A stretch of DNA of 61,780 nucleotides, taken from the NCBI GenBank assembly GCA_016937995.1, contig JAFGVM010000066.1, positions 1 to 61,780 of the forward strand. The letters run 5' to 3'. This DNA comes from Candidatus Delongbacteria bacterium. Its GTDB lineage: Bacteria; UBA4055. The notes beneath the pieces are model-generated. The model had not been told where the DNA came from, searched no databases, and saw only the letters and a list, made by a program, of their open reading frames with translations. Positions within the stretch are counted from its first letter, which is position 1. Each line of letters begins with the position of its first letter. Below are positions 17,523 through 43,097 of this stretch, in pieces. Both the position numbers and the translations under genes were made by a program.

Positions 17523-20500
17523 TTACCATACCTCCAATGCCTCTGTCAACATGGCAAGCTGCTGTTCTTCTTTGAATCCGAGCTGCTGCATTGCACCTGA
17601 TGGACAAACTGCTGCACAACTTCCACAACCCTTACAAAGAGCAGAATTTATATGGGCAAATTCCTTACCGTTCCTCCAGAATAATTCAGGAGCACCGTAT
17701 GGACAAACAGAAACACACATTCCGCAACCGACACAGACATCAAGATCGACCTTAGCAATGTTAGCTTCTGCAATATATTCATCTGAACTGATGATCATAG
17801 TAGCTCTTTCCGCCGCAGCTTTGGCTTGAGAAATAGTTTCTTCCATTCCCTTTGGAGAATGTGCAAGACCTGCAAGGAAAACTCCTTCAGCAGAGAAATC
17901 AACCGGACGAAGTTTAACATGAGCTTCCATGAAGAAATTATCTTCATTCAGAGGTATCTTTAACATTTGTGAAAGTTCAACTGCATCCTCCTGTGGAACC
18001 ATAGCGGAAGAAAGTATCACTCTATCAGGATACATAATAGTATCCTTACACATGATATGATCTTTATATGTTGCCCTCAGACCTTTACTCTTAAGCATTT
18101 CCTGTTTTGCATCAATGTCTATTACAGGTTTGGTGTCAATATCGTACCTAACAAAAACAACTCCAAGATCTCTGGCTTCTCTGTAGTATTTCTCACTGAA
18201 TCCGTAAGTCCTGATATCTCTGTATAGGATATGTATATTCATTTTAGGGTTCAATTCCTTTAATCGGATGGCATTTTTTATTGATTGAGTACAGCAAACC
18301 CTTGAACAATATGGCCTGTTCTCATCTCTTGAACCAACACACTGGACAAGAACAATATTTTTCATTTTCTTATATTCATTGATATTTTTCTCAAAATCCT
18401 GCTCAAATTCAAGCTGGGTAATTACATTTTCATTTTTGCCGTATAGATATTCTTCAGGTTTGGATTCATTTGCTCCGGTGGCAATTATAATTACGCCGTG
18501 GTCATATTTAATATCCTCATCCTCCCTGTTGAGATGTACAGTCGTTGTAAAGTTACCTACATATCCCGAAATATCTTTGATCTTTGCTTCTGTGTAGATA
18601 GTGATCAATTTATTATCTGCAACTTCATCTCTGAGTTCTGTCAGATAATCACCAACCTTTTTACCTTCAACATTCTCATCAAGTCTGTTAAGATTACCTC
18701 CGGTTCTGTCACTTTTTTCAATTATAGCAACTTCATAACCCTGATTTGCGATTGAAAGTGCGGAAGTTAAACCGGAAAGTCCTCCTCCAACGACAAGAGC
18801 TTTCTGTGTTACTCCAAGTGCTACAGAATGTAGAGGTTCAAGAAGTCTTCCTTTACTGACAGCAATTTTAGTAAGTCTTTTAGCTTTTTCAGTAGCAGCC
18901 GGATGATCATCTTTATGTACCCAGCTGCACTGGTTACGGATATTAGCCATGTCAAACAAGAACTTATTAAGACCAGCTTCTCTCATAGTTTCCTGGAAAA
19001 GTTCTTCATGGGTACTTGGAGAACAGGATGAAACAATTACCCTGTTAAGCTTATATTCTTTTATTATCTCTTTCATTTGTTCCTGAGTATCCTGTGAGCA
19101 GGTAAAAAGGTTATCGGATGCATATACTACATTAGGTAATGTTTTTGCAAATTCAACTACACTTTTTACATCAACAACACTACTGATATTTATACCGCAA
19201 TGACAAACGAATACACCAATTCTAGGTTTTTTACCGATCACATCTATTTCTTCAGGATATACTTTTTCGGTTATCTCTGTTCCTCTCACTTCAGCAAGTA
19301 TCTCAGCAGCATTTGCCACAGCTCCGGAAGCCTGCATTACTGTTTCAGGAATATCTTTTGGAGATACTGCAGGACCGCAGACAAAGATACCTGGTCTTGT
19401 AGTCTGGATAGGGGAGATACCGAAATTATCAATAAAATTATATTCATTTAATCTTACACCAAGTCTGTCCGACAATTCAATAGAAGTATTCTGTGGGTGA
19501 AGACCAATAGATAGAACTACCAGATCGAATTCCTCAATTCTGTTCTTACCGTCATCCTCTACATAATAAAGTTCAAGATTACCACTTTCTTCTATCTCTT
19601 TGATCTTTCCCACACGACCTCTAACAAATCTTACATTTGCATCTTTCGCTTTATCGTAATATTTATCAAAATCCTTACCGTATGCTCTAATATCCATGTA
19701 GAAGATAGTTGGTTCAACTGAGCTTACATGTTCTTTAGCTATAATAGCTTCTTTCATTGTGTACATACAGCAGACAGATGAACAATACGGCATGTCAGAG
19801 TCCTCTGTTCTTGACCCGACACACTGGATCCAAGCAATTTTTTTAGGTACTTTTCCGTCAGCAGGTCTTTGGAGATGACCTTCGTAAGGTCCGGAAGCAG
19901 CAAGAATTCTCTCGAACTGAATACTTGTTACAACATTTTTAAATCTGCCATAGCCATATTCATGCATTGCAGTCGGGTCATATTTCTCAGCTCCGGTTGC
20001 TACAATGATCGATCCAACATTAATTTCTTCTTCATGATCGATCATATCATGAACGATCGCTTCGGCTTCACATACAGTTACACATTCCATACATCCAGAA
20101 CAAATACCGCACTCAAGACATCTTTTAGCTTCTTCTCTTACTTCTTCTTCAGAGTAACCGAGTTCGTGTTCATCGAAATTCTTTATTCTTTCTTCAGCTT
20201 CCTGGAATCTCATCGGTTTTCTTTCCTGACGCATAACGAACTGCTGAGGTTCTTTTGCAGGGATCAGGTCCTTTTTTGCAACTCTTCCTTTTTCCATATC
20301 CTGACCTGTCAGGTATCTTTCTATAGAAATAGCAGCCTCATAAGCCTGACCTACAGCTTCAACAACTGAAGCCGGTCCCTGAACAACATCACCGCCTGCA
20401 AAAACATCAGGAATATTAGTTCCGAATGTCAATTCATTTGCAACAATAGTATTCCATGGTGTGGTTTTAACTTTACTGTCTTCTAATATTTTAAGGTCTG

Positions 20501-21983
20501 AAGTCTGAGAAACTGCAGCCATTACATTATCAAAATCTTCGACAAATTCATTTCCTGTCGGTTCAGGTCTTCTTCTACCGGAATCATCTCTTGCACCAAG
20601 TTTCATTTCAGAAAATTTAATAGATTTCATCTTGCCGTTCTCACCGATGATCTCGATAGGATTTGTAAGGAATTTAAATTTAATTCCCTCCTCTTCTGCT
20701 GCAACTATCTCATGCTTTTCTGCCGGCATTTCTCTTCTTGTTCTACGATATATTAAAGTAACATCAGCACCGAGTCTTTTAGCTGTTCTTGCACAGTCAA
20801 TAGCGGTGTTTCCACCACCTACAATAGCAACTTTTTTACCGATATGGACTTTTTCACCCCAGTTCACTTTCTTAAGGAAATCAATACCACCGAAAACACC
20901 TTCAAGGTCTTCACCTTTTATTCTAAGTGATTTACTTAGTTGCGCACCGATACCGACGAAGAATGCTTTATATCCTTTCAGTCTAAGTGCTTCAATATCC
21001 TCATGAGAATTTATCGGATGATTAACCTTGAGATCAACACCTTCTTTCAATATCTGCTCAATTTCCCAGTCAAGTTCATCTCTGGATAATCTATATGGAG
21101 GGATGCAAGAACGCATCATACCACCTGCTTTAGCATCTTTCTCAAAGATAGTTACCTGATAACCTTTCTGAGCAAGATAATACGCACAGGTCATACCTGC
21201 AGGACCTGCACCAATGACAGCAATTTTTTCTCTTGTCTTTGCAACAGGAGCTTCTTTCTTATCAAATTCATCCTGATGAGAATGTACATAGTCAGCAATG
21301 AATCTTTTTATTGATCTGATAGCCAAAGGATCGTCATAGTCACCTCTTCTACAGTCAAGCTCACAAGGATTGTGACAAACTCTACCACAAACAGAAGGGA
21401 AAGGATTATTTTGTCTGATAAGGTCATAGGCTTCTTTATATTTTCCTTGAGATACCAGAGCTATATACCCCTGAACATGGATTCCTGAAGGGCAGGATAT
21501 CTGACAAGGAGGTAATTCGTTTTTATCAATTACAAAGGCATTTGGAGATGCTTGAGGATAAGGCTTATATATAGCTGTTTTTTCAACAAGTTTTTCGTCA
21601 AATATTGAAACAGTGTTAATGGGGCAGATAGAAGCACATTCACCACATCCGGTACATTTATCAAGGTCGACAAATCGTGCTCTTTTATTAACTTTAACCT
21701 TGAAATTACCTGCTTCTCCATCTACAGAAACAAGATCGGTATTTGTTAAAAGGTCTATATTCAAATGTCTTCCGGCTTCAACGAGTTTTGGAGAGATCAC
21801 ACACATTGCACAGTCATTCGTAGGGAATGTCTTGTCAAGCTGAGCCATAGTACCACCAATAGCCGGTGTTTCTTCCATTAAATATACTTTAAAGCCTGAT
21901 CCTGCAAGATCAAGAGAGGATTGTATCCCTGCAATTCCTGCTCCGATCACTAGTACGGAACCTACTTTGTCTTTACTTTCCAT
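17523..21983 (-). CDS. hdrA: Large HdrA-like flavoprotein with inserted GltD/NfnB-type NAD(P)H oxidoreductase module (HdrL-like)
   Basis: LDKTFPTNDCAMC; CVGSR..CSSVCC; three FAD GxGxxG motifs plus the NAD(P)-binding GGGNTAIDCAR; PPCQISCP..CGRVC; C-terminal 2x[4Fe-4S]. Confidence 0.85.
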   Translation of the reverse strand: MESKDKVGSVLVIGAGIAGIQSSLDLAGSGFKVYLMEETPAIGGTMAQLDKTFPTNDCAMCVISPKLVEAGRHLNIDLLTNTDLVSVDGEAGNFKVKVNKRARFVDLDKCTGCGECASICPINTVSIFDEKLVEKTAIYKPYPQASPNAFVIDKNELPPCQISCPSGIHVQGYIALVSQGKYKEAYDLIRQNNPFPSVCGRVCHNPCELDCRRGDYDDPLAIRSIKRFIADYVHSHQDEFDKKEAPVAKTREKIAVIGAGPAGMTCAYYLAQKGYQVTIFEKDAKAGGMMRSCIPPYRLSRDELDWEIEQILKEGVDLKVNHPINSHEDIEALRLKGYKAFFVGIGAQLSKSLRIKGEDLEGVFGGIDFLKKVNWGEKVHIGKKVAIVGGGNTAIDCARTAKRLGADVTLIYRRTRREMPAEKHEIVAAEEEGIKFKFLTNPIEIIGENGKMKSIKFSEMKLGARDDSGRRRPEPTGNEFVEDFDNVMAAVSQTSDLKILEDSKVKTTPWNTIVANELTFGTNIPDVFAGGDVVQGPASVVEAVGQAYEAAISIERYLTGQDMEKGRVAKKDLIPAKEPQQFVMRQERKPMRFQEAEERIKNFDEHELGYSEEEVREEAKRCLECGICSGCMECVTVCEAEAIVHDMIDHEEEINVGSIIVATGAEKYDPTAMHEYGYGRFKNVVTSIQFERILAASGPYEGHLQRPADGKVPKKIAWIQCVGSRTEDSDMPYCSSVCCMYTMKEAIIAKEHVSSVEPTIFYMDIRAYGKDFDKYYDKAKDANVRFVRGRVGKIKEIEESGNLELYYVEDDGKNRIEEFDLVVLSIGLHPQNTSIELSDRLGVRLNEYNFIDNFGISPIQTTRPGIFVCGPAVSPKDIPETVMQASGAVANAAEILAEVRGTEITEKVYPEEIDVIGKKPRIGVFVCHCGINISSVVDVKSVVEFAKTLPNVVYASDNLFTCSQDTQEQMKEIIKEYKLNRVIVSSCSPSTHEELFQETMREAGLNKFLFDMANIRNQCSWVHKDDHPAATEKAKRLTKIAVSKGRLLEPLHSVALGVTQKALVVGGGLSGLTSALSIANQGYEVAIIEKSDRTGGNLNRLDENVEGKKVGDYLTELRDEVADNKLITIYTEAKIKDISGYVGNFTTTVHLNREDEDIKYDHGVIIIATGANESKPEEYLYGKNENVITQLEFEQDFEKNINEYKKMKNIVLVQCVGSRDENRPYCSRVCCTQSIKNAIRLKELNPKMNIHILYRDIRTYGFSEKYYREARDLGVVFVRYDIDTKPVIDIDAKQEMLKSKGLRATYKDHIMCKDTIMYPDRVILSSAMVPQEDAVELSQMLKIPLNEDNFFMEAHVKLRPVDFSAEGVFLAGLAHSPKGMEETISQAKAAAERATMIISSDEYIAEANIAKVDLDVCVGCGMCVSVCPYGAPELFWRNGKEFAHINSALCKGCGSCAAVCPSGAMQQLGFKEEQQLAMLTEALEVW

Positions 21984-22109: not shown

Positions 22110-23231
22110 CTACTTTATCAAAGAGTTTAATCTTGCTTGTGCTCTGGCTTTTTTTCTTATTGCAAATTCTTTAATTATATCTATCAAATAGTTACTTTCA
22201 ACTTTTTCGTGCATGCATTTATCATGCTTATTCTCAATATATCCTTTATAAAGAGCTTCTGAGTAAATTTCTCTACCCAGAGAATTTCTGATAAGTACCG
22301 TTGTAAATCCTTCGTCTGATCCAATGCCACCAACAGATATATCTGCATAATCGTTAGCAAAATCGTCACAGGCTATACAAGCCGGTCGTGCAATCTTTTC
22401 TATTACATCAAGCGGAACATGTATACAAATACCTGATTTCATATTCAATATCAATTTGTCTTTAATGTTTACCTTTACGATATCATCAATACAGATATTA
22501 TGTAACTTTGCAAATTCCTTTTTAGCAAGGTCTTCCAGTGTAAAACACTGTAAACAGAACAGACCTATAGTAAAGATCACCATATCTGAAGGAACTATGT
22601 TCATAAGCTGCATTTTTCGAATAGCTTTAATTTGACAAGGGGTGCCAACTAAAGCAAGTTTCTTCATATTCTTTTTGGCAGATTCCCGGATCACTTTTAT
22701 AACCGGAAAGCAAGATTTATATTCACTTCCTAATTTGTCCAGATGTAATGCTTCTGAATAATATGAACCGGCAGTTTCAAGCAATTCTTCTTTTGAAGTA
22801 GCTATTGTAGGACCATTACCACATGCTCCGATCCTTTTTGAAACGATCGCACCATCGATCTTGTTACTTTCAATCAAATAAGACAACAGCGAAGTTACTA
22901 CACCACCGTCTGTTGCTACCTTTTTAACATCTATATCAGTAGAACGGGCTGAAAAAACATCGATCCAATTTCCTATAGGAAATTTAGCATCGAATTTTTG
23001 CTTAAGTTCTTCCTCCAATCGTTTTGTCTGAGGGCAGATAAGGTAACAAATTCCGCCTTGCAGGCATTTTTCCTGGTCAGAATATTTCGGATAACCATCT
23101 TCACCAATTTCTAAAGCATTTATTCCATTAGCACTACAGAATGAAACACAACCTCCACAACGATTGCAAAGATCTTTGCCGATCACTTCTGTTAAAAGAT
23201 TATTGAAGCTAATACCGATATTCTTTTCCAC
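22110..23231 (-). CDS. FrhB/FdhB family (F420 hydrogenase beta-subunit-like) flavo-iron-sulfur protein
   Basis: CNRCGGCVSFC, ATDGGVVT, VGTPCQI, IGLFC, ACIACDDF, ADISVG. Confidence 0.88.
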   Translation of the reverse strand: MEKNIGISFNNLLTEVIGKDLCNRCGGCVSFCSANGINALEIGEDGYPKYSDQEKCLQGGICYLICPQTKRLEEELKQKFDAKFPIGNWIDVFSARSTDIDVKKVATDGGVVTSLLSYLIESNKIDGAIVSKRIGACGNGPTIATSKEELLETAGSYYSEALHLDKLGSEYKSCFPVIKVIRESAKKNMKKLALVGTPCQIKAIRKMQLMNIVPSDMVIFTIGLFCLQCFTLEDLAKKEFAKLHNICIDDIVKVNIKDKLILNMKSGICIHVPLDVIEKIARPACIACDDFANDYADISVGGIGSDEGFTTVLIRNSLGREIYSEALYKGYIENKHDKCMHEKVESNYLIDIIKEFAIRKKARAQARLNSLIK

Positions 23232-23303: not shown

Positions 23304-24161
23304 TTATTTGATAGGATTATCTTTTCCGACGTTCCACTCATAATAAGCACCATCATATACTTTTACATTTTTAAATCCTGCTACATCTGTTAAAGCCATG
23401 AATACGATACCAGCTCTCACACTTGAAGCACAATAAAGAATTATTTCTTTATCGGCAGTAATACCTGCAGATTTTGCAGCGGCAATGATCTCATCCTTAG
23501 ATTTTAAAACACCATCTTCTTTGAAAACATTTACATGGTCAAAATTAACTGCACCTTCAATGTGACCTTTTTTATTAATGTTAGCATCATCTTTTTCTTT
23601 ACCGTTGTATTCATCAGCGCTTCTAACATCAACAATAACAACCTTATCATTTTTCAGGTTGGCTTTAACATATTCTATATCCGCATAAATTGCTGAATTA
23701 ACAGCAGGTGTGAATGTTGCAGCTTCGATCTCAGTTGCTTTTCCTGTGATCGGTTTTCTTGCCTTTTTCCAGCCCTTAATATGTCCGTCAAGAATGTCGA
23801 CATCCTTAGCGCCCATATATTTAAGTATCCAGTATAATCTTCCGGCTGCTTTATTTGATCCTGTATCATAAATAATGATCTTTTTATCAGCACTAATTCC
23901 CTGCTCACCCAGGATCTTTGCGATCTCTGCTGCAGGTTTCAGCATACTCTTGATACCCTCGGTATTATATAAAGCAGCATGATCAATGTTAACAGCACCT
24001 TCAATATGTTTTTTGCTGTAATCCGCAACAGGTTTTGTTGAGACAATAATTGCTTTTCCGTCCTTAGAAAGCTTAGCAGCATCTTTTGCAGATATTATAC
24101 CTGCAAAAACAAATTGAACACTGATCAACAGTACTACGATTATTCCAATATATTTTTTCAT
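23304..24161 (-). CDS. Exported tandem-domain sulfurtransferase (TST/SseA-like rhodanese)
   Basis: Signal peptide; HIEGAV twice; inactive N-domain YDTG; active loop YCASSVR; VYDGAYYEW. Confidence 0.9.
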   Translation of the reverse strand: MKKYIGIIVVLLISVQFVFAGIISAKDAAKLSKDGKAIIVSTKPVADYSKKHIEGAVNIDHAALYNTEGIKSMLKPAAEIAKILGEQGISADKKIIIYDTGSNKAAGRLYWILKYMGAKDVDILDGHIKGWKKARKPITGKATEIEAATFTPAVNSAIYADIEYVKANLKNDKVVIVDVRSADEYNGKEKDDANINKKGHIEGAVNFDHVNVFKEDGVLKSKDEIIAAAKSAGITADKEIILYCASSVRAGIVFMALTDVAGFKNVKVYDGAYYEWNVGKDNPIK

Positions 24162-24177: not shown

Positions 24178-25227
24178 TTAAAACTTAACCTGTAATTGAA
24201 CAAGGATTTCGTCATTTTTCACTTCAACTTCTTCTGCTTTGTACAAATAGTTTATTTGTAATCTTGTCCAATCGTTAAAGAAGTAATTTAATCCCCAAGT
24301 TATTATACTTTGAGAATCTAGATCTTCATCAATGTCAGGATCAAAAGTTTCATATTTAATTACTGGTTGAAGATCCCATTCTGTCATATACATTGCCTGT
24401 AAAAAATATCCATCTCTTTGGATTGAACCTGTGTGGAACTCCACTTCTTCGCCACTTCAACCGCCGCCTGTTGTATAAGAACCTTCGTCTTTACCTTGAA
24501 TGTATTCAGCCTGTAATAAAAAATTATCATATTTGAATTCTAATTCTCCTCCAAAACGAGTTTTTTCATCATCTGGCTCGCCAGCAACAATAGGAGCAGA
24601 TGTTCCAAATTTATAACTACCACCAATACTGATCATATCATGTGGTGTTATTACTAACCTGCCAGTAAATGCTTTATTATTGTTGTCATCTAGGTCTCCA
24701 AGTTCGTTTCTTTTTGTCGCATTAGTGAGTGAAAGACCATATTTAAGGTATGTTCCATATTTCCCATTAATCATAATACCCATATCTCTATCAGGATATA
24801 CTAAGGTATTTACAACTGTAGATCTTTTAATCGTATGCAAAGATTGACATGGTGTGTTCATTTCAAGACCAAAAACAGATTTGAATCTACCTAACGAAAT
24901 TTTTGCATAAGGATCAAGTCTTGAATATGTTGCAAATCCATCAATCAAATAAGGGATTCCGTCTTCTGAAGCATATGGGCTAAGTTCCATTAAAAGGTAG
25001 TAACTAAAATCGTAAGGTATATTACCCACAACACCCAAACGAGCTCTGTTAAACGAAAAAGTTGTCAGATCTTCAACATTATTTTTGTACTGATGATATT
25101 CAAATTGTGATTGTAAATATCCAACGACACTAACACCTTCATCAGAAGAAGCTTCCATGCATTGTGAATATATTACTGAAGTTAACGATGCTACAATCAA
25201 AAAAGACAATAAAAATATTTTCTTCAT
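24178..25227 (-). CDS. OprO/P-like outer-membrane porin, 349 aa, predicted selenoprotein (Sec257 at TGA 24457-24459)
   Basis: Track ORFs 24457..25227 and 24178..24444 are in frame: SYTTGGG-TGA-SGEEVEFHTGSIQRDGY. The joined protein is a complete barrel ending QLQVKF, with a hairpin after the UGA. Confidence 0.8.
24423..24460 (-). promoter_or_regulatory. Putative bacterial SECIS of the porin
   Basis: Apical GUGG-AGUU-CCAC with loop 16 nt after UGA and G second in loop; basal UUGAA/UUCAA pairing. Confidence 0.5.
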
Positions 25228-25291: not shown

Positions 25292-26305
25292 TTATGGTGA
25301 AACTTCCAATGGAAGGTCAACAATAGCTGCTGCATCCCACTTATGTGTCTCAAGATCATCATATATCATTGAGTTTGCACCGTTTTTTAAACTAACAGCA
25401 TCAAATCCAAGCACATTAAGATAAGCAGTGATCATTGAAGAAGTTTGACCTGTCCAACAATACGTTACTATTTGCTTGCTAGGATCAAGATTAGTTATCT
25501 CCAAAGGATTTATTCTGTATGCGCCATCAATATTACCATAAAACTCTACATCAGTTGTTGTCCAGTAGTTGTTAATGAAATATTGAGTTGGATCTGCAAG
25601 AACTGTAGTAGCTGCGATACCTTTAAATCCACCGGCTAACATTGCATTAACTCTTTCGGCTAATATCTCAGCACCGTCCGTAGAAGCAACAGTTAAATCA
25701 AAATCAGGAAGATCAAAAACGATATTATCAGCGATATCGCCAGGTGCTGCTGTCCAATTAGGATCGTCCAGCTGAGAACATGAAGCAGACCAGCTATCAT
25801 ATTTTGTTATTATTGTATCTGCAACAGCATCCATTACATCAGTATGCCATCCACTCATTCCCCACATGATAGAGAAAGCATCTGAATATCCGGACAATCT
25901 TAAAGCAACCACCGCATGACATGCTGATTGTCCACTGTAGCAAACTACTGCAATAGTTTTATCTCCTGCGTTTGCAGCAGCAGTAACGACATCAGTAAAA
26001 GGAACATTTACCGCACTTGGAATATGTCCAGCAGCGTAAGCTGAAGCTGATCTGATATCCATGATGTAATAATCATTTAAAGGATCAGTGTCAGTCATGA
26101 TATCATTTACTGAACTTGCTGTTTTAATCCATGATGTAAGAACAGAAGTGATATCCATTCCATTGTCTTCCATATAATCCTGCATAATTTCGAATGCCGT
26201 TAGTGTAGGTACCGCAGGATCATCACTATCATCCTTACAACTTGTTAAGAAGATGCTCGTTAGTGCGAACATTACTACAAGTAACATTGTCCATTTCTTT
26301 TTCAT
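25292..26305 (-). CDS. Two-domain rhodanese lipoprotein
   Basis: Lipobox LTSC; GHIPSAVN; two active-site loops, CYSGQS and CWTGQT. Confidence 0.88.
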   Translation of the reverse strand: MKKKWTMLLVVMFALTSIFLTSCKDDSDDPAVPTLTAFEIMQDYMEDNGMDITSVLTSWIKTASSVNDIMTDTDPLNDYYIMDIRSASAYAAGHIPSAVNVPFTDVVTAAANAGDKTIAVVCYSGQSACHAVVALRLSGYSDAFSIMWGMSGWHTDVMDAVADTIITKYDSWSASCSQLDDPNWTAAPGDIADNIVFDLPDFDLTVASTDGAEILAERVNAMLAGGFKGIAATTVLADPTQYFINNYWTTTDVEFYGNIDGAYRINPLEITNLDPSKQIVTYCWTGQTSSMITAYLNVLGFDAVSLKNGANSMIYDDLETHKWDAAAIVDLPLEVSP

Positions 26306-26448: not shown

Positions 26449-26476
26449 AATTAAAGGCGTACAGCCTTTTAATTCT
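26447..26476 (-). promoter_or_regulatory. Putative SECIS of the Sec-rhodanese (extends into the 3' UTR)
   Basis: AGAAUUAAAAGGC-UGUAC-GCCUUUAAUUCU; 12-bp stem with one bulged A, loop 17 nt after UGA, G second in loop. Confidence 0.7.
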
Positions 26477-35500: not shown

Positions 35501-35598
35501 AAATGTACTTTTATACCCATATCGGCAAGATCAAGAGCCGCCTGAATTCCGGCGATCCCTGCTCCGACTACCATTGCTGATCTACTTTTTAAACTCAT
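32545..35598 (-). CDS. hdrA: Double-FAD HdrA-like protein, 1017 aa
   Basis: LDKTFPTNDCSMC, two CVGSR..CS..CC, VCHCG, ACTPRTHE. Start moved to ATG 35598 (AAGGA RBS) because the track extension overlaps the read-through mvhD. Confidence 0.9.
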   Translation of the reverse strand: MSLKSRSAMVVGAGIAGIQAALDLADMGIKVHLVEESATIGGRMPQLDKTFPTNDCSMCILAPKMSEAVRHPNISIHIKSKVESVEGLPGDFIAKIVEEAKYVDPEKCVSCGLCEEKCPVKVADEFDMQLRKRGAISRYFLQSIPAEYTIDKNNCLYLTKGVCKICEKVCPAGAINYDDKDRKIELNVGAVILSTGIDTFNPIHFGNLGYKRFSNVVTSLEFERMLSASGPMGGHITKFNDHKEPKSIAFIQCVGSRDESIGHNYCSSACCMFAIKEAIIATEHMKGLKSSIFYMDIRAFGKDFDKYYENAKNKYGVEFIKSKVSDISENADGSLTLKYVFENGDIQYKDFDMVVLAVGLQPRKGMPELAEKLDIKLNEYGFCRSDSYTPLTTSREGIYVCGAMNAPKDIPESVVSASGAVAEATKFLRLERQKLTDAKDAPKEIKVEGERPRIGTFVCHCGINIAGVVDVKSVAESARDLPNVEHSEDLVYACSPDCMNTIKERIKEHNLNRVVVAACTPRTHEPLFRETINEAGLNPYLFEMANIRDQCSWAHQNEPELATEKAKDLMAMAAAKAKELKPLARLPIDINPKALVVGGGLAGMAVADTLATAGHEVFLVEREKTLGGNLKNIYFNFGKDPQKHLADYIDRVEKNKHIHLYKNTDIKKIDGYVGNFKTTMVEKDSKEEHTFEHGVTVIATGADEHETSEYLYGETSTIVTQVEFESMLHKKKFPKKPKTVVMIQCVGSRKEGKMYCSRICCTKAVKNAGVLKEMMPNTNVYIVYRDMRTYGFREKYYSELRDNGTMFVHYSPEKKPEVSLVDEMDPDSGVNVTVFDPIMDKEVQITADMLVLSVAVDPKKDNIDLARMLKVPLNADGVFLEAHAKLRPVDFATDGVFLAGLAHGPKDMDESLMQAKAAASRALTFLNKKQILAEGTITEVNDSRCTGCGYCELACAYNAIAVDPEKEIAVVNDALCKGCGACVASCRCGALNLRGFTNEQLFATFDSLTLTEELEIF

Positions 35599-35617: not shown

Positions 35618-36043
35618 CTATAAGAATATATTATTTCTTGTTGGGTTCTCACCCTTATTCGTAATTGTTTCAGTGTATTCACTACTTACCTGAGCAAATT
35701 TTTGACCCTCAGATGCAGAGATCCAAGAGAGTCTGAACCTTTCTTCATCAAGTCCGAGGGACTTGTAAAGTTCCTGAACTATTTTGATCCTTCTTCTTGT
35801 ATGATAATTACCAACCTGGTAATGGCAGTCACCGGGGTGTCAACCACCGACCAGAACACCGTCTGCTCCACGAAGATATGATTTTATCAAAAACACCGGA
35901 TCAATTCTACTTGAGCACATTACTTTGATAGGTAAAACTGCTGTAGGATACTGAGATCTGTTGATACCTGCCAGGTCAGCTCCAGTATAAGAGCACCATT
36001 TGCAGAGAAAACTTACTATCTTTGGTTCAAATTTATTTGACAT
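35618..36043 (-). CDS. mvhD: MvhD 2Fe-2S subunit, selenoprotein (Sec68 at TGA 35840-35842), 141 aa
   Basis: CKWCSY, MCSSR, then [16 protein letters not shown]...WISASEG; TAG at 35618. Confidence 0.93.
35807..35823 (-). promoter_or_regulatory. Putative SECIS apical hairpin
   Basis: AUUACCA-GGU-UGGUAAU, stem starts 16 nt after UGA. Confidence 0.75.
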
Positions 36044-36076: not shown

Positions 36077-37171
36077 TTATTCGCCCATTTCCGGAAATTC
36101 CTGTTCCTTGAATATCATTACAGGTATTTGTTCATTTACATCTCTACCAGGAACGAAATCAAATACTTTTGCTATATGTTCACCTGATCTTTTAAATACA
36201 GGACCAACTGGAATACTTGAAGGACATACATCAGTACATTGACCGCAACCTACACATGAATAAGCCATGTGCGATAATCTTCCTAGGTGAAAGAAAATCG
36301 TATCCGGAGGAAGTCTCAATGCACCTTTCTGTTCAAGTTCCTTTTCCATGATACCTGTATTATAATCAAAGTTCGATGAAGAAAAATCACATTGCGTACA
36401 GTAGCAAATTGGACAAACACTGTTACATCCACGGCAACCGATACACTTTCCAAAGATCTCTACCATTCCGTCAAGACCTTTATCACTTTTATCCACTGAT
36501 GCGAACAATGCTTCTTTTTCCTTCAGTCTTTTTTCTGCAAGCCGATCGAGAATAGATGCATCAAATTTGTTATCAGATAACTTACCTTCAAATCCTTCGG
36601 TAAATTTTACAGCTTTATCAGTATTTAGATACAATTTTGTAGTGTTAGCCTCTTCATTGATAACAGAGATAAGTATGTCCGCATTGGTCGGAGCAAAATG
36701 CTCACATGCTTTACAATTCGTACGAACTCCGTTATGAATTTCACCATTTTCAGTAGCTTTCCAATAATCCTCAAGTTGATCAGTAGCTTTTCCACGAACA
36801 TTATCTTTCAACGGAATAACACCGCCGCAAGTATGAGTTATGAAAAGGAAGTTATCCATAGAACCCTGAGCTCTTTTTACCATTTCAACATAAGCCCTGA
36901 ACTCACAAGGTCTGATAACAACTGCTACAGGTTTATCCATCGGAGTGAATCCGGAAAGAACCTGTCCTGCCTGTAATGGCATGATCGGGTAGAATGGATC
37001 TATTATATCAAGATTTTCTATTTTTGTCGTAAAAGCATAGTCGTGTGAACCTGAGTCATGGATCTTTCTCAGAGTAAACACTCCGCTTACAACTTCTTTT
37101 TCTAGAAGATGTTTAAGAAGATCTTTCACAACTGTATCACGGTTTTTATCTATAGTTAAAAGTTTACTCAT
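36077..37171 (-). CDS. FdhB/FlxC-like iron-sulfur protein
   Basis: RPCEFRA, CIGCRGCNSVCPICYC, HMAYSCVGCGQC. Confidence 0.82.
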   Translation of the reverse strand: MSKLLTIDKNRDTVVKDLLKHLLEKEVVSGVFTLRKIHDSGSHDYAFTTKIENLDIIDPFYPIMPLQAGQVLSGFTPMDKPVAVVIRPCEFRAYVEMVKRAQGSMDNFLFITHTCGGVIPLKDNVRGKATDQLEDYWKATENGEIHNGVRTNCKACEHFAPTNADILISVINEEANTTKLYLNTDKAVKFTEGFEGKLSDNKFDASILDRLAEKRLKEKEALFASVDKSDKGLDGMVEIFGKCIGCRGCNSVCPICYCTQCDFSSSNFDYNTGIMEKELEQKGALRLPPDTIFFHLGRLSHMAYSCVGCGQCTDVCPSSIPVGPVFKRSGEHIAKVFDFVPGRDVNEQIPVMIFKEQEFPEMGE

Positions 37172-38324
37172 GACCAACCTCCTTTGCTTCTACACTCTTT
37201 ACGAGATCTTTTAACTCTCCAAGTTCCTCAACTTTGTAATCTCTCATAGGAAGGGCATCACCGATACTGTTTCCCGCGATATAATCAAAAGCTTCCTGAG
37301 TTTGTGCACCTGAGTAAGCGAATATCTTAGCTACAGGAATATCAACCGGGCAAGCATCAGAGCAAAGACCGCAATTGATACATGAAAGACTCATGTGAGC
37401 CATTCTTCCAACATGGAACATTATTTTATCCTGAGGATACCCTAATGCACCTTTTTTATCAGCACGGATCTTAATAAAATCTGAATTTGGTTTATTTGCA
37501 GTTGAATCAAAATAGCATTGTCGACAGTAGCAGATAGGGCAGACGCTATTACAATTGTGGCATCCGATACAATTTGCGAAAGTCTCCTTCAGATTATCGA
37601 GACCTTGTGTCATCTTAGCTACGTTCTTGAATTCATTTTCTCTTGCTGTTGTTCTATCAGCAACGACTTTATCCATAAACTTAGACCATTCAGATAGTTC
37701 AGTATCAAGGTTTAATTTTAATTCTGAAACGACCTTTTCACCTCTTTCACTGTTAGGAATAAGGATAAGTCCTTCATTATCAATAGCAAAATGGATATCA
37801 GTTGCAACAGGTATAGAGCATTTATTACATAATTCACATGTACCTTTAATGATCTTAGAATTGTAAGTTCTATCTTCGAGTAATTTATCAAATTCTACTT
37901 CACTTTTCTCAGGATCCAAAATATAGTTCTGCATAGGTAATGCACCTACACAATCATAACTGAACAATGTGATATCATCAAGTTTGATCTGATTTAGCTT
38001 AACAAGTTCAATTATAGCTCTGATCTCACAAGGCCTTGCCAAAGCCGCGATCTTATATTTTCCAGAACCTTTTCTTGTATATCTTTTAATTGCATTTGCA
38101 GCATTAGCAGTCATGATCGGTGCAATAGGATTCGCATCGTTTAGTAATTCCATATCCTTGATCATCATCCATGCATAAGAATCCTGAGTTGGAACTCTCA
38201 TTGGCATTAAAACCAGATCAAATTGCTCTTTTTTAACTGCATCTCTGAAAAAATCCCTGATCGCAGAACGAATATCGTTCTTTGAATCCAGTTTTGACCC
38301 TTTATTAGGGATGTTATCCATCAA
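37164..38324 (-). CDS. FdhB/FlxC-like iron-sulfur protein (paralog of the neighbour)
   Basis: RPCEIRA, CIGCHNCNSVCPICYC, HMSLSCINCGLC. Confidence 0.82.
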   Translation of the reverse strand: MMDNIPNKGSKLDSKNDIRSAIRDFFRDAVKKEQFDLVLMPMRVPTQDSYAWMMIKDMELLNDANPIAPIMTANAANAIKRYTRKGSGKYKIAALARPCEIRAIIELVKLNQIKLDDITLFSYDCVGALPMQNYILDPEKSEVEFDKLLEDRTYNSKIIKGTCELCNKCSIPVATDIHFAIDNEGLILIPNSERGEKVVSELKLNLDTELSEWSKFMDKVVADRTTARENEFKNVAKMTQGLDNLKETFANCIGCHNCNSVCPICYCRQCYFDSTANKPNSDFIKIRADKKGALGYPQDKIMFHVGRMAHMSLSCINCGLCSDACPVDIPVAKIFAYSGAQTQEAFDYIAGNSIGDALPMRDYKVEELGELKDLVKSVEAKEVGHE

Positions 38325-38476: not shown

Positions 38477-40159
38477 TTACCTTAATGCTTCTTTGACTTC
38501 CTGATATAATTGAGGGTTGGTAAAGTGTTTTGATCTGATGGAACCTGAAGGACAACTACCTATACAATTACCGCACCCACGACAAATAGCTTCATTTACT
38601 ACTGAAATACCTTTTTCGTCATCAAAATAGATCGAATCGAACTTGCATACCTGAAGACATGTTTTACATCCTGTACAATAAGCCTCAAGAACTTCTGAAA
38701 CTTTAACCTCAGGTACGATCTTCTGACCCGGGATAAGCTGAGTAAGGATCTTTCCGCCAGCGGCTTTTGACTGTATAACAGCGTCTGTAATACTTCCGGG
38801 ACCGTGAGCGGTACCAACAGCGAAAACACCGTCGATATTGGTTGAAACAGGATTTATCTTCATGTGTGCTTCGTTGAAGAAACCCATTTCATCAAGATCT
38901 AAGTTCAATAATTTTGATATTTCATTTGTACTTTTACCTGGAACAGTAGAAGGTGCAAGGACTATCATGTCAGCATCTAAAACTATCTCTTCTCCTTTTC
39001 TACTCTTATATGTCAATTTCTGACCATCAATTTTGAATTCATCTATGTAAACTATTTCAGCACCGTTATCAACAACACTGTTACAGAATTTCTGACTGGT
39101 TTTATTAGGCAGACAAAGGTCTTTAACAAGATGTGTTATCTTCTTAATTCCCTGTTTTTGCAAATAATTCGATATCTTGAAACTGTAATTACAGCAGATC
39201 TTGGAGCAATACCCTACTTCGTCTCTTCCCACACAGTGTATAAGAACAACTGAGTTAACTTCCTCACCTGACCTTAATGCAACTTTCTTCTTTTCGTTGA
39301 TCATAGCTTCAAGTTCTAAAGCATTGAATACATTGTTTTCTGCTGTATAATTCACATTATCAAGCTTATTAGGATCAAAAAGATCGAATCCGGTCGCAAC
39401 AACAACCGCACCTGCCAGAAGTTCGAGAATTCCGTCATTGTTTTTAGCGTTCAGAGTAACTTCAAAATTGCCCATGAAACCGACAATTCTCTCAACTTCA
39501 GTATTTGTAAACACTTTGATATAATGGTTCTTCTTAACTTCTGCGATCATTCTCTGGAGTGAGGTCAGAGTTTCCCCCTGCATAGGAAGTAGTCCGAATA
39601 GATCTGATGCATGTCCACCCAGTTGTTCACTTTTTTCAACCAGGAATACCATTCTTTCTTTACTTGCAACAGATAACGCTGCTTCCATTCCTGCCATTCC
39701 ACCACCGATGACAAGTACATCAGGATTACTGTCAAGCTGCTTCTCTTCTAATGGAGACTGATAAAGTACTCTGTTCATTCCCGCATGAATGTAATTAATA
39801 GCTTTTTTAGTAGCTTCTTCCATGTCAGGGATTATCCAGGCAACCTGTTCTCTTATATTTATAATTGTATAAAGGTATGGATTCAGTTGTGTTTTCTTAC
39901 ATACATTAATAAAAGTGGCGTCATGATCTCTTGGTGAGCAGGCTGCACAAACCATATGGGTCAGTTTGTTTTCATTTATTTCATCCTCCAGGAATTTTTT
40001 TCCGCCAACAGAACAAAGTAGCTTGTGTTTTTTTATAATGAGTTCTTTGTCCTTAAAATCCTCTAGTCTTGAAAGTTCATCAGCGACTTTATCAAGATCT
40101 ATTTTTGAAGCGATGTTGGGTCCGCACTCACATAAATATATTCCAATTTTTTCAGTCAT
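38477..40159 (-). CDS. hdrA: HdrA-like protein (matches the C-terminal half of the 1017-aa HdrA)
   Basis: LCECG, ACSPRDH, NIREQ, GGGMAG, CVGR..CSKICC, C-terminal ferredoxin. Confidence 0.85.
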   Translation of the reverse strand: MTEKIGIYLCECGPNIASKIDLDKVADELSRLEDFKDKELIIKKHKLLCSVGGKKFLEDEINENKLTHMVCAACSPRDHDATFINVCKKTQLNPYLYTIINIREQVAWIIPDMEEATKKAINYIHAGMNRVLYQSPLEEKQLDSNPDVLVIGGGMAGMEAALSVASKERMVFLVEKSEQLGGHASDLFGLLPMQGETLTSLQRMIAEVKKNHYIKVFTNTEVERIVGFMGNFEVTLNAKNNDGILELLAGAVVVATGFDLFDPNKLDNVNYTAENNVFNALELEAMINEKKKVALRSGEEVNSVVLIHCVGRDEVGYCSKICCNYSFKISNYLQKQGIKKITHLVKDLCLPNKTSQKFCNSVVDNGAEIVYIDEFKIDGQKLTYKSRKGEEIVLDADMIVLAPSTVPGKSTNEISKLLNLDLDEMGFFNEAHMKINPVSTNIDGVFAVGTAHGPGSITDAVIQSKAAGGKILTQLIPGQKIVPEVKVSEVLEAYCTGCKTCLQVCKFDSIYFDDEKGISVVNEAICRGCGNCIGSCPSGSIRSKHFTNPQLYQEVKEALR

Positions 40160-40177
40160 TTTTATACCTTAATTATA

Positions 40178-41464
40178 TTATTCCTGGATCGACAATATTC
40201 CTGCTACTGCTGCTTCCGCCTGCAAAACTGAACGCTGTATATCTTTAGGTCCTTCAGCACATCCTGCTACGAAAATACCCGGTCTTGAAGTCTCAACAGA
40301 ACCTATTTTATGAGGTTCAACTGCGATAAAACCGAACTCATCTCTTTCAATATCAAGAGCATTTGTAATTTCTTCAATGTCTTTTGGAGGTACAAATGAA
40401 CTGGCAAGGATCAGCATATCAACAGATAATTTACTTTCTTTTTCTTCATTATTTATATAGGTGATCAATATTTTATCACCATCTTCAGAAACTTTCATTT
40501 TATTTCTATCCGTCTGAAAAATAAATTCTGAAGATTCTTCTTTAACTTTAGTATTAAATTTCTGATAAGTTTTGTCAGGGAGACAAAGGTCTGAATATAT
40601 GTTATATATTTTTGCTTCTGGAAGTTTGTGTTTAATGAAATGGGCGTGCTTTGAAGATGACATACAGCAGACACTTGAACAGTAACCTACCTTATCTCTT
40701 CCTACACAATGAACTATAGCTACAGATTCGGGTGTTTTATCAGAGTCTCTCAGGGTAAGTGCTCCTTCAGTTGGACCGTTGGAAGCAAAAAGTCTTTCAA
40801 ATTCCAATGCAGTATAAACACATTTGAATTTACCATATCCTAACTCTTCTATGGTTGATACATCGAACAATTCATAACCGGTAGCAACGATAATACCTGA
40901 AACTTCGATCTCGATCTTTTCATCTTTCTGACTGAAATCAAATGCTGCGAACATACAGGCATCAATACATTTACTGCAACTTTCATCCTGCCCGTTCAGC
41001 CTCAAGCAATGTTCAGCTTCAACTCTAGGAACATTCGGTAAGGCACCTGAACAAGGAATATATACAGCTTTTCTATCGATAAGATTCTCTTCCCACTCGT
41101 TCTTAATAACTACAGGGCAAGGTTCATAGCACATATGGCAACCAAGGCAAGCCTCTGCATTGATATATCTTGCAGTCTTATTAATTGTTACTTTAAAATT
41201 ACCTTCATCACCGGTAACTTTTTCTACAGTACTGAGGGTCAGCAGATCAATATTGGCATCCTGCAGGATTTCCTGTTGGATAGGAGCGACCAGGCAAGTT
41301 GAGCAATCAAGATTAGGATAGGTTTCCTCGTTCTTGATAGTCTTTCCTCCAGTGAGAGCCAGTTTCTCAACCAAGATAACTTTTTTACCTGCCTTAGAAA
41401 GCATTAAAGATGCATCCATCCCTGCTACTCCAGATCCTATTACTAATACTTTTTCATTATTCAT
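40178..41464 (-). CDS. hdrA: HdrA-like protein (matches the N-terminal half of the 1017-aa HdrA)
   Basis: GSGVAG, YPNLDCSTC, inserted ferredoxin, CVGR..CSSVCC, GPKDI. Confidence 0.85.
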   Translation of the reverse strand: MNNEKVLVIGSGVAGMDASLMLSKAGKKVILVEKLALTGGKTIKNEETYPNLDCSTCLVAPIQQEILQDANIDLLTLSTVEKVTGDEGNFKVTINKTARYINAEACLGCHMCYEPCPVVIKNEWEENLIDRKAVYIPCSGALPNVPRVEAEHCLRLNGQDESCSKCIDACMFAAFDFSQKDEKIEIEVSGIIVATGYELFDVSTIEELGYGKFKCVYTALEFERLFASNGPTEGALTLRDSDKTPESVAIVHCVGRDKVGYCSSVCCMSSSKHAHFIKHKLPEAKIYNIYSDLCLPDKTYQKFNTKVKEESSEFIFQTDRNKMKVSEDGDKILITYINNEEKESKLSVDMLILASSFVPPKDIEEITNALDIERDEFGFIAVEPHKIGSVETSRPGIFVAGCAEGPKDIQRSVLQAEAAVAGILSIQE

Positions 41465-41563: not shown

Positions 41564-41986
41564 CTACAACTTTGGATCCTGCTTTACAGGATTAGGACCA
41601 AGTGCTTTGATCTTTGCAGTAAAGTCATTTACAACCTGACTGTACTTCTTTCCCTCTGAGGCAGAAACCCAGGTTAACTGGATCCTTTCAGGATCAATAT
41701 TCAATGTTTGAAATACTTTTTTCAATAATGCGTATCTTCTACGCGCATAAAAATTACCAACCTGGTAATGGCAGTCTCCAGGATGTCAACCGGCTATCAG
41801 GATACCGTCAGCACCACTGAAGTATGTTGTAAGTAAGAGGTTTTGATCTATTCGGCTTGTACACATAACTCTTACAACATTTAATGAAGACGAGGTCTCC
41901 TGTTTGGCAGCTCCTGCCATATCAGCAGCGGCATAAGTACACCAGTTACAAAGAAAACCTACAATTTGGGGTTTGAATTCTTCCAT
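41564..41986 (-). CDS. mvhD: MvhD 2Fe-2S subunit, selenoprotein (Sec67 at TGA 41786-41788), 140 aa
   Basis: CNWCTY, MCTSR, then [16 protein letters not shown]...WVSASEG; TAG at 41564. Confidence 0.93.
41753..41769 (-). promoter_or_regulatory. Putative SECIS apical hairpin
   Basis: AUUACCA-GGU-UGGUAAU, stem starts 16 nt after UGA. Confidence 0.75.
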
Positions 41987-42054: not shown

Positions 42055-42279
42055 TTAAAACTGGATCTGAGCTGAGTGGTTACCACTACCATCATCCATA
42101 CAGAATAATAATGTTTTACCTGTTCTATCACACCAGGCTTTGATATCGGTCGGGAATGAAGGACAGTCAGCTTTAATTTCAAGTATATCTCCTTCTGCCA
42201 TTGTAGGCACTAATGCTACTACTTTAAGTATTGGTTGAGGACATTTTAGTCCCATACAATCTAATTCTTTTACTGCCAT
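42055..42279 (-). CDS. tusA: TusA family sulfur carrier
   Basis: LDCMGLKCPQP, DIKAWC. Confidence 0.92.
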   Translation of the reverse strand: MAVKELDCMGLKCPQPILKVVALVPTMAEGDILEIKADCPSFPTDIKAWCDRTGKTLLFCMDDGSGNHSAQIQF

Positions 42280-42305
42280 TTTTAGCTCCTTTTATGCAAT
42301 TTAAT

Positions 42306-42665
42306 TTAAAATGAAAATGTTAATTCTGATCCTTGTGCTTCCGCAACAAATGTTGTAGCACCAACAACTTCACAACCATCTATAAGGTCTGCTTCTTTCA
42401 ATCCATGAACTTCAAAACCTAATTCACAAATTAAAATCCTTCCGCCAAGCATTTGAAATCCCTCCATCATTTCCTCAAGGTCCGGTAAATGCTTCCCAGC
42501 TTCGTTCAATTTCGCGATCTCACCTTTTTTGAACACAGGAAGTCCGCTTGGAAGCACGAATAGAATTACCTGATCACCGCTTGCGAGTGCTGAAACTGCA
42601 ATAGTGATAGCCGGATAGATATTCTTTACTTCAGATCCGTTCAGTGTCATTGATAACTTTGCCAT
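42306..42665 (-). CDS. DsrE/DsrF-like sulfurtransferase
   Basis: About 120 aa; ALASGDQVILF, ILICELG, VVGATTF; dsrE-tusA pairing. Confidence 0.8.
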   Translation of the reverse strand: MAKLSMTLNGSEVKNIYPAITIAVSALASGDQVILFVLPSGLPVFKKGEIAKLNEAGKHLPDLEEMMEGFQMLGGRILICELGFEVHGLKEADLIDGCEVVGATTFVAEAQGSELTFSF

Positions 42666-42806: not shown

Positions 42807-43097
42807 TTATGTTTCCATTAAATCGATAAGTTTAACTGCAAAATCATCAATAACTTTGTAACAAACTTCAGTACCCTTTCTTATACCTTTTATGATACCG
42901 GCATCCTTTAATACCCTTAAATGTTGAGAAATAGTTGATTGAGGAAGTCCCATTCTTTCAGTACATTGAGTAACATTACATTCGTTATGAAATAATCCTA
43001 CTATCATTTCCAGTCTATGGGGGTGTGATAAAGGTTTAAGAACATGAACTAATTTGTCATAATCAATCTCTTTTTGTGTTAATCGTCTTGTAGGCAT
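42807..43097 (-). CDS. ArsR/SmtB family repressor heading the cluster
   Basis: LSHPHRL, PQSTISQHLRVLK, RKGTEVCY; three Cys. Confidence 0.92.
   Translation of the reverse strand: MPTRRLTQKEIDYDKLVHVLKPLSHPHRLEMIVGLFHNECNVTQCTERMGLPQSTISQHLRVLKDAGIIKGIRKGTEVCYKVIDDFAVKLIDLMET

Follow-up and report, generated by a model that had tools for sequence, protein, structure and literature searches.

The passage of insoluble elemental sulfur (S0) or of polysulfide through the outer membrane is a recognised gap in knowledge, and a 2026 paper on MccSep states that the transport mechanism has not been elucidated (PMC13510729). In Geobacter, the porin ExtI and the rhodanese lipoprotein ExtH flank a selenocysteine (Sec)-dependent periplasmic polysulfide reductase, and the outer-membrane route is stated to be unknown (PMC13510729). 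A Sulfurovum study notes that experiments have not yet identified the membrane proteins involved, and recalls an old hypothesis of a "reactive thiol" outer-membrane protein. Here we analyse a 61,780-nt stretch of DNA from a Candidatus Delongbacteria bacterium (contig JAFGVM010000066.1; the whole stretch is hereafter called the window), which contains 23 genes lying head to tail on the minus strand (43097->17523). This cluster brings together genes for a selenoprotein porin, three exported rhodaneses, a YeeE/YedE-family transporter, TusA and DsrE sulfur carriers, and an HdrA/MvhD/Flx assembly. With moderate confidence, we propose that it encodes a modular trans-envelope system for inorganic S-S compounds that feeds a cytoplasmic reductase without HdrB and acts as an electron sink.

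The nearest analogue is the ExtH/ExtI/MccSep (ExtKL) system of Geobacter sulfurreducens: in both cases, an OprP-like porin gene adjoins a rhodanese lipoprotein gene and is linked to a Sec-dependent sulfur-reducing enzyme. ExtI has one Cys only (PMC5877670), whereas the window porin has three invariant Cys/Sec positions. Unlike the Geobacter locus, the window has no multihaem cytochromes, and its proposed terminal enzyme is cytoplasmic and would be reached via YeeE and TusA. FlxABCD-HdrABC of Desulfovibrio and HdrL of Desulfobacterium are also known systems. Like FlxABCD-HdrABC, the window has FlxA-like, two FlxB/C-like Fe-S, MvhD-like FlxD, HdrA and HdrC-like proteins, and we take its large HdrA-GltD fusion to be of the HdrL type. 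Unlike FlxABCD-HdrABC, it lacks HdrB, has the reversed gene order and carries HdrA as heterotypic A'/A'' pairs; all three of its MvhD proteins are selenoproteins, and no DsrC/DsrAB system was found in the genome. In PsrABC/Sud polysulfide respiration in Wolinella, an exported rhodanese-type carrier feeds a sulfur reductase. Such a carrier is common to both systems, but no NrfD/Psr was found in the genome that contains the window, so that reduction would have to be cytoplasmic. As in sHdr systems, TusA, DsrE and rhodanese-type carriers lie beside Hdr-like genes, and as in some sulfur oxidisers there is ArsR-type regulation and a YeeE-like importer (PMC11094781, PMC11582611). Unlike in sHdr systems, HdrB1/B2 and lipoate-binding proteins are absent from the cluster, and Flx, HdrL and FdhB-like modules are found instead. 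As in YeeE(TsuA)-YeeD/TusA and YedE-YedF pairs, a PF04143 transporter lies beside a TusA-family gene, but the window YeeE fails both equivalog cut-offs and sits between exported rhodaneses and Hdr genes. We rejected membership of the ExtHI, TsuA, YedE and sHdr families, since scores fell below cut-offs or defining subunits were lacking.

An initial annotation of this DNA did not recognise the full combination as a described system. Parts of it have precedents. Williams et al. (2021) described a Cloacimonadota metagenome-assembled genome (MAG) in which Hdr genes cluster with an exported TST, TusA and a sulfur transporter, and proposed sulfur oxidation; the available text mentions neither a porin nor selenocysteine (PMC8542988). 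A paper on Desulfurivibrio dismutans, which also mentions HdrL, describes a Psr operon with an exported rhodanese and raises the possibility that sulfur enters through a porin that co-localises with sulfurtransferases and YeeE (PMC12142623). Hence, the combination is not wholly undescribed. The table of a 2026 review of prokaryotic selenoproteins lists MvhD/VhuD, HdrA, five rhodanese forms with other Sec motifs, ExtKL and a GSU2204-family beta-barrel, and the word "porin" is absent from the available text (PMC13188914). The window MvhD proteins, in which a PF02662 domain carries Sec, thus belong to a family already listed as a selenoprotein. Our literature searches returned no description of a Sec- or Cys-triad porin or of a rhodanese with C-terminal Sec, although selenoproteome supplementary tables might list them. 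The porin and the lipoprotein rhodanese with C-terminal Sec are apparently new, and would represent two undescribed selenoprotein/Cys-protein families.

Five of the 23 genes contain an in-frame TGA, each preceded by GGT (T-coordinates 41788, 35842, 32324, 26483 and 24459). A tRNA-Sec gene with anticodon TCA (49584-49679, plus strand; ARAGORN; Rfam RF01852, 58.4 bits) lies 6.5 kb from the cluster, and profile searches of the genome detected selA, selB and selD, all over cut-off. In the three MvhD proteins (PF02662) and the porin (PF13609), the Pfam domain runs across the TGA, and orthologues of all five genes show either TGA or Cys in the aligned column. For the porin and the lipoprotein rhodanese, we scanned each sequence individually for hairpins 3' of the codon, with Cys-type orthologues as controls. 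A GU-loop hairpin was present 12-19 nt 3' of the TGA in every TGA form examined and absent from most Cys forms. In MAFFT alignments of the regions 3' of the TGAs, the hairpins are out of register, and for this reason RNAalifold found no consensus fold.

The three MvhD selenoproteins illustrate this pattern. The first (MvhD/FlpD; 41564-41986; PF02662, E 1.9e-46, spanning the TGA) has Sec67 (TGA 41788-41786) and a hairpin resembling a selenocysteine insertion sequence at 41769-41753; the second (35618-36043; E 1.6e-47) has Sec68 (TGA 35842-35840) and a hairpin at 35823-35807; and the third, which is FlxD-like (32073-32522; E 1.8e-54), has Sec67 (TGA 32324-32322) and a hairpin at 32305-32289. At the variable position of their motif, G[U/C]HPGDCHY, 12 orthologue matches carry Sec and 11 carry Cys, with the Cys forms in other phyla. 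The hairpin, AUUACC-loop-GGUAAU, lies 19 nt past the UGA (fold z-score -2.35 for MvhD selenoprotein 3) and accounts for downstream codons (YQVGN or YLSGN) that are fixed in Sec forms only. The five TGAs are identical in contigs of two DNA runs, which are possibly the source of the assembly and hence not independent of it. Given the complete machinery, the Cys/Sec columns, the conserved TGAs and the downstream hairpins, we conclude that all five TGAs are genuine Sec codons, predicting five selenoprotein genes. Thus, the initial annotation, which had reported five GGT-TGA genes with hairpins and a tRNA-Sec about 6.5 kb away, and had made its reading depend on selA, selB and selD, is borne out on each of these points. 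Sequencing error and pseudogene formation were rejected as causes of the TGAs, which are kept in orthologues at 57-63% identity with matched hairpins. The selD gene of this genome (G000:C37:2048-2968, L001) itself has one in-frame TGA, making its product a selenoprotein SelD.

The porin (24178-25227; 349 amino acids (aa); PF07396 and PF13609) scores 58.2 bits against PF07396, for which the gathering threshold is 20.9. An AlphaFold2 model (predicted local distance difference test (pLDDT) 84, predicted TM score 0.79) forms a 16-strand barrel whose top Foldseek match is OprP (2o4v, E 1.2e-14, TM 0.74); OprP and OprO are the best fold matches. Sec257 (TGA 24459-24457; hairpin 24444-24433) lies in loop 254-262, the least confident part of the model barrel. 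By the usual porin topology, in which the termini and short turns are periplasmic, this would be the sixth outer loop. Cys127 lies in the long third loop (117-146), which in such porins forms the constriction, and Cys23 in a conserved stretch at the N-terminus of the mature protein. Each of these three positions is invariant in 23 full-length Cys-type homologues. A database search returned 655 porin homologues. In an alignment of 32, the Sec column is Cys in 25 of 25 full-length homologues, and five incomplete database entries stop exactly before it. A partial homologue (P0116) has Trp at this column; its source probably read TGA as Trp, making this a mis-annotated Sec codon.

We identified 417 genome loci that encode a porin relative, and all neighbourhood counts given here are for the best 80 of these 417. 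The Sec column is TGA in 18 of the 80, Cys in 60 and Cys in a longer loop in two. Orthologues in three other genomes of the phylum share 63% protein identity with the window porin and have one in-frame TGA each, in the motif GSYTTGGG-U. The porin genes compared are not independent of one another; 19 of 19 TGA forms, versus 19 of 60 Cys forms, have a hairpin with a GU-containing loop and a stem of at least 4 bp 12-16 nt past the codon, and 16/19 versus 9/60 have one of at least 5 bp. The mean minimum free energy 3' of the codon is -10.6 kcal/mol for TGA forms versus -5.1 kcal/mol for Cys forms. Stems vary by lineage (GUGG/CCAC, CGUGC/GCACG, CCGAGG/CCUCGG, UUGGUG/CACCAA), with pairing kept. One Cloacimonadota locus (L039:8120-12500) contains tandem duplicates of the double rhodanese and the porin, and both porins have an in-frame TGA and a 3' hairpin.

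Genes for exported rhodaneses lie on both sides of the porin gene. The first product is a lipoprotein rhodanese (26475-27023; PF00581), here called the tail-rhodanese, with an acidic tail ending GG-U-G; its TGA (26483-26481; hairpin 26469-26453) is the penultimate codon (...EGG-U-G-stop). The catalytic loop keeps its Cys (CLSGGR), whereas Sec stands next to last in the protein. In each of the 54 orthologues listed, a lipobox and an acidic linker are present and the C-terminus reads G-[C/U] plus 0-2 further residues; 45 are Cys forms and nine are Sec forms, with the window protein a further TGA form. We found a hairpin in the 3' flank of 8 of 8 TGA forms versus 0 of 40 Cys forms scanned, and two further TGA forms also show it. 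A structural model (pLDDT 87.5) has a confident domain and a tail with pLDDT of about 50 and no secondary structure. The Sec motif matches none of the known rhodanese selenoprotein forms 1-5 (UxxS, UxxG, CxU, UxxxxU) given in the available text of PMC13188914. In the tail-rhodanese of a Krumholzibacteriota locus (L073:8262-8777), Gly replaces the catalytic-loop Cys and the C-terminal GGCGG is kept, which hints that the tail Cys may be the indispensable one. The second product, rhd2 (25292-26305; 337 aa), is a lipoprotein with two rhodanese domains (PF00581), and the third, rhd3 (23304-24161; 285 aa; PF00581, 127.7 bits in two stretches), is an exported tandem-rhodanese sulfurtransferase whose N-terminal domain is inactive.

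Pfam and NCBIfam profile scans of all 23 window proteins, with curated cut-offs applied, assigned the remaining families. The inner-membrane step would fall to a YeeE/YedE-family sulfur transporter (27040-28251; 403 aa; PF04143, 155 bits), encoded directly after the second of two TusA genes (28264-28491; 75 aa; PF01206, 93.5 bits). This tusA lies 12 nt upstream of yeeE, and the adjacency is conserved in related loci. YeeE scores 98 against 400 and 70 against 645 with the TsuA models. The first tusA copy (42055-42279; 74 aa; PF01206, 61.6 bits) lies near the start of the cluster beside the gene for a DsrE-family sulfur carrier (42306-42665; 119 aa; PF13686 and PF02635), in which orthologue alignment reveals a single conserved Cys (LxCELG). 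A second dsrE-tusA pair lies on another contig (G000:C99:17904-18586), and its TusA is 95% identical to the first copy in the window. The leading gene of the cluster encodes an ArsR/SmtB-family regulator (42807-43097; 96 aa; PF01022 and NF033788, over cut-off). Its Cys40 and Cys79 are kept in 5 of 5 sequences, and orthologues lie upstream of tusA-yeeE in four related loci (L036, L040, L055 and L073). The conserved pair fits a thiol-based sensor, and sulfane sulfur is the probable signal for this two-Cys repressor.

The rest of the cluster encodes the HdrA/MvhD/Flx assembly. Genes that the initial annotation had called hdrA-N and hdrA-C are present, but the naming does not hold: they encode two distinct HdrA-type subunits, A' (40178-41464; 428 aa; NF040770, 376 bits, below cut-off) and A'' (38477-40159; 560 aa; Pfam, NCBIfam), which by blastp match residues 31-450 and 481-1030, respectively, of a tandem HdrA fusion (32545-35598; NF040770, 979 bits; HdrA 5odc, E 1.3e-191). 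The open reading frame (ORF) of this fusion, 1045 aa, is listed to 35682, and its true start is probably the ATG at 35598. A further protein, the HdrL-type fusion (17523-21983; 1486 aa; Pfam, NCBIfam, blastp), consists of the same A'/A'' pair with a GltD/NfnB-like NAD(P)H module inserted. There are thus three heterotypic HdrA'/HdrA'' pairs, one of them split, one fused, and one fused around a GltD module. Between the split and fused pairs lie genes for two FdhB/FrhB-like Fe-S proteins, the first (37164-38324; 386 aa) matching FdhB of Fdh-Hdr complexes in the Protein Data Bank (PDB; 9t1s, 8rvu and 7bkb, E down to 2.9e-25) and the second (36077-37177; 366 aa; Pfam) being its paralogue at 31% identity; a further FrhB/FdhB-family flavo-Fe-S protein (22110-23231; 373 aa; PF04432, PF04422) is encoded before the HdrL-type fusion.

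By domain content, a Flx set is present in full, with FlxA (FAD/NAD), FlxB/C (Fe-S), FlxD (MvhD) and HdrA. The FlxC-like Fe-S protein (31111-32073; 320 aa; Fer4 domains) is related to the FdhB-like pair by blastp. The FlxB-like protein (30064-31095; 343 aa; PF17179) resembles sulfhydrogenase beta (PDB 9nez_B, E 5.3e-41) and AsrA, and matches AsrA, ShyB and HydB models below cut-off. The FlxA-like FAD/NAD(P)-binding [2Fe-2S] protein (29219-30046; 275 aa; PF00175, PF10418, PF00970) is HydG-/AsrB-like, and an HdrC-like two-cluster Fe-S protein (28584-29060; 158 aa) scores 97.5 bits with TIGR03290, below the cut-off of 160. No PF02754 match, indicative of the HdrB CCG domain, was found in any of the 23 proteins; in the genome, CCG proteins are encoded only on contigs C2 and C73, the latter with a canonical hdrA-mvhD-hdrC-hdrB set (G000:C73:17846-21391). 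The cluster likewise has no lipoate-binding protein, the single GcvH-like gene of the genome lying on contig C66. Candidates for the reducing site are the sulfhydrogenase-beta-like FlxB, the FdhB-like pair, or the Sec-x4-Cys motif of MvhD.

The ORF listing and profile scans agree with the co-orientation and order of the 23 genes in the initial annotation, and the largest intergenic gap is 169 nt. A sigma-70 promoter scan of the cluster performed no better than one of shuffled sequence, and the single RNA run from the same study yielded no meaningful coverage. Strong terminator-like hairpins on the minus strand lie just before the porin gene (25278-25251) and just after rhd3 (23293-23268), with 12- and 10-bp stems, respectively, and T-rich tails. 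These may be attenuators or stabilisers that set the dosage of porin and rhd3 apart from that of the rest of the cluster.

We determined the gene content of the 80 related loci by tblastn with the 23 window proteins. They span at least eight phyla. Among named records, those closest to the window are MAGs with the labels Candidatus Delongbacteria and Cloacimonadota; the set also includes Marinimicrobia, KSB1, Zixibacteria, Krumholzibacteriota, Calditrichota, many Bacteroidota, and one bin labelled Armatimonadota. We found rhd2 in 78 of the 80 loci and rhd3 in 77, both flanking the porin, and the tail-rhodanese in 56. Rhodanese-porin-rhodanese is thus a constant front end, and the back ends joined to it are mutually exclusive. 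In 25 loci, yeeE occurs with HdrA-type genes; yeeE alone occurs in 10, mostly on short contigs, and HdrA-type genes alone in two incomplete loci. A Psr/Phs-type trio (psrA and psrC) occurs in 14 loci and consists of a molybdopterin subunit, for which PhsA is the best model, together with a four-cluster protein and NrfD (PF03916); in Marinilabiliales, the porin-rhodanese module lies directly upstream of Psr/Phs-like genes. Nine loci have an octaheme cytochrome, which passes TIGR04315 (tetrathionate reductase family; 577 bits versus a cut-off of 375), together with a cytochrome b. In 20 loci, no back end is in view. None of the 80 combines Hdr with Psr, and yeeE occurs with Psr in one locus only, as a distant 28% match.

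Hdr genes adjoin the front end in two gene orders and under at least five phylum labels. The order in the window is hdrA-flxDCBA-hdrC-tusA-yeeE-rhodaneses-porin-rhodanese-frhB-hdrL; in the second, the envelope genes come first, followed by (dsrE)-tusA-mvhD-hdrA'-hdrA''-fdhB-like x2-mvhD-hdrA. Some Bacteroidales have a shorter, more divergent Hdr set. In related loci, TusA/DsrE genes are placed directly before mvhD-hdrA. Co-conservation of the envelope and hdr/flx genes, which had been set beforehand as a check on the initial annotation, is therefore observed in 25 of 80 loci, in at least two gene orders and in several phyla. This synteny, together with the interchangeable back ends, suggests that the envelope genes deliver a sulfur substrate, received here by cytoplasmic Hdr-type enzymes.

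The genome that contains the window is 2.75 Mb and 97% complete. We found no dsrA, NrfD/Psr, AprA or [NiFe] hydrogenase in it, which answers the dsr/psr check of the initial annotation; an [FeFe] hydrogenase is present. Absence of dsrA, NrfD and AprA together with an [FeFe] hydrogenase fits a fermenter. We therefore propose the following scheme. The OprP-like porin, with its outer-loop Sec/Cys and constriction Cys, and the three exported rhodaneses would capture sulfane sulfur from polysulfide or S0, possibly from thiosulfate or tetrathionate, and hand it on as protein per(seleno)sulfides. YeeE/YedE and its TusA partner would bring the sulfur over the inner membrane to TusA and DsrE. The back end would comprise the three HdrA'/HdrA'' pairs, the three Sec-MvhD connectors, the FdhB-like and Flx-like subunits and the HdrC-like protein. 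NAD(P)H from fermentation, entering via the FlxA and GltD modules, and/or ferredoxin would reduce the sulfane sulfur to H2S via MvhD and the HdrA flavins, giving an electron sink to a fermenter that lacks respiratory sulfur reductases. We infer that the system reduces rather than oxidises, that it acts on sulfur rather than selenium, and where its catalytic site may lie; the covalent relay steps, the direction of electron flow, the catalytic subunit and the regulation are put forward as proposals on the same footing.

Several observations weigh against this scheme. The porin was found in only 4 of 16 genomes of the phylum, including this one, which indicates an accessory trait. The N-terminal porin Cys is preceded by A-Q-G in most homologues and by S-Q in the window. 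A-Q-G before Cys resembles a lipobox and S-Q does not, so the role of this Cys is ambiguous: instead of acting as a relay thiol, it may serve for lipidation. Non-independence of the relatives overstates the significance of the hairpin comparisons, for which P values are indicative. The terminator-like hairpins beside porin-rhd3 may split the cluster into several transcripts. The cluster encodes no HdrB/CCG subunit and hence no known disulfide-reducing site. Lastly, by its standard potential, the sulfane/sulfide couple is too negative a partner for NADH-dependent reduction of ferredoxin, so that the flavin-based bifurcation via HdrA-Flx drawn in the initial annotation is doubtful and not supported. 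The other part of that reading, a Cys/Sec relay, is well supported by comparative evidence, and emerges strengthened by the Cys/Sec pairs at all five sites and by the alternative sulfur-reductase back ends in other loci.

Sulfur oxidation is an unlikely alternative. In this case, the rhodaneses, YeeE, TusA and DsrE would feed an sHdr-like oxidising complex, with electrons passing to NAD+ or ferredoxin for biosynthesis or carbon fixation. Cloacimonadota clusters of Hdr, TST, TusA and a sulfur transporter have been interpreted in this way (PMC8542988), which counts against a reductive role for the window cluster; moreover, DsrE, TusA and rhodaneses are constant companions of sHdr systems (PMC11094781), and ArsR-type regulators and YeeE-like importers serve sulfur oxidisers (PMC11582611). 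However, the cluster has no HdrB/CCG or lipoate-binding protein, the one GcvH-like gene being on another contig, and neither AprA nor DsrA was found in the genome to process the products. In addition, other loci couple this front end with enzymes of the Psr/Phs and tetrathionate-reductase types, and the NAD(P)H-binding Flx/GltD modules and [FeFe] hydrogenase fit a fermenter disposing of electrons.

We consider a role in selenium or tellurium handling to be quite unlikely, with sulfur much more likely than selenium as the substrate. The porin, rhodaneses and YedE/YedF-like pair would then take up and reduce selenite or Se0 for selenoprotein synthesis or detoxification. In its favour, the best NCBIfam model for YeeE is YedE/FdhT, with the porin and rhd3 weakly matching the ExtI and ExtH selenite/tellurite models. 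Of five Cys-type carrier genomes tested, four have selD over cut-off, a result that does not separate selenium from sulfur. The tRNA-Sec gene is 6.5 kb away, and ExtI has been implicated in selenite uptake (PMC5877670). However, these scores are far under the curated cut-offs (YeeE with YedE/FdhT, 116 against 350; porin with ExtI model NF040900, 39.8 against 150; rhd3 with ExtH model NF040901, 67.6 against 200), and one carrier genome, a KSB1 MAG, has no selD over cut-off. The selenoprotein of the ext cluster has now been shown to reduce polysulfide and to be required for S0 respiration (PMC13510729), the alternative back ends come from families of enzymes that reduce sulfur compounds, and a trace-element pathway would hardly be expected to take up 25 kb and three HdrA pairs. 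Least likely is that two unrelated sets of genes happen to be neighbours, with the envelope and YeeE/TusA genes importing thiosulfate or persulfide for assimilation or for detoxifying reactive sulfur and Hdr/Flx/HdrL balancing NADH and ferredoxin: terminator-like hairpins flank porin-rhd3, 10 loci have yeeE with no Hdr in view, 20 have no back end, and the genome has a canonical hdrA-mvhD-hdrC-hdrB set elsewhere, but most loci with no Hdr in view are short contigs, Hdr genes adjoin the front end in two orders under at least five phylum labels with TusA/DsrE directly before mvhD-hdrA, and yeeE accompanies Hdr in 25 loci versus Psr in one (the 28% match).

Within the proposed trans-envelope sulfur-reducing system, a more specific role for the porin is possible rather than probable, and we suggest it tentatively: the porin may be a covalent conduit instead of a passive channel, in which sulfur passes from the outer-loop selenolate or thiolate to the constriction Cys and then to the tail Sec/Cys of the rhodanese. 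The loop-tip selenolate (a thiolate in other phyla) would attack extracellular S8 or polysulfide, and the rhodanese tail would reach into the barrel from the periplasm as a swinging arm, so that sulfur would cross both membranes as a protein-bound per(seleno)sulfide. In the cytoplasm, an Hdr without HdrB would then reduce the TusA/DsrE persulfide, perhaps at the Sec-x4-Cys site of MvhD. If this is true, the porin would be the outer-membrane protein with thiols that has long been postulated to activate S8 or polysulfide.

The cluster supplies a concrete and widespread candidate for the outer-membrane step, with a porin relative encoded in 417 genome loci and 655 database homologues of the porin, and its invariant Cys/Sec residues are experimentally approachable in cultured, Cys-type Marinilabiliales. 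It also defines an HdrA/MvhD/Flx assembly that lacks HdrB and is tied to sulfur carriers. Finally, it points to a contribution to sulfide production by uncultured fermenters (among them Delongbacteria, Cloacimonadota, Marinimicrobia and KSB1) that carry no standard marker such as dsr or psr.

Genes on either side of the cluster have other predicted functions. Directly downstream on the minus strand (window 9250-17328) lies a gene for a 2692-aa protein with beta-helix, chitobiase C-terminal, Fn3-associated and cleaved-adhesin domains, which is probably secreted or surface-located. On the other side, a TonB-dependent receptor gene (44427-46667) is directly preceded by an AdoCbl-II (cobalamin) riboswitch (window 44313-44390, plus strand; Rfam RF01689, 40.5 bits), the two together forming a probable B12-uptake unit divergent from the sulfur cluster. 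Further along are a gene for a protein with a CHU_C type IX secretion signal (window 47791-49449) and, on the plus strand (window 50983-54819), MoxR AAA ATPase, DUF58 and VWA/BatA genes that constitute a Bat-type "aerotolerance" operon.

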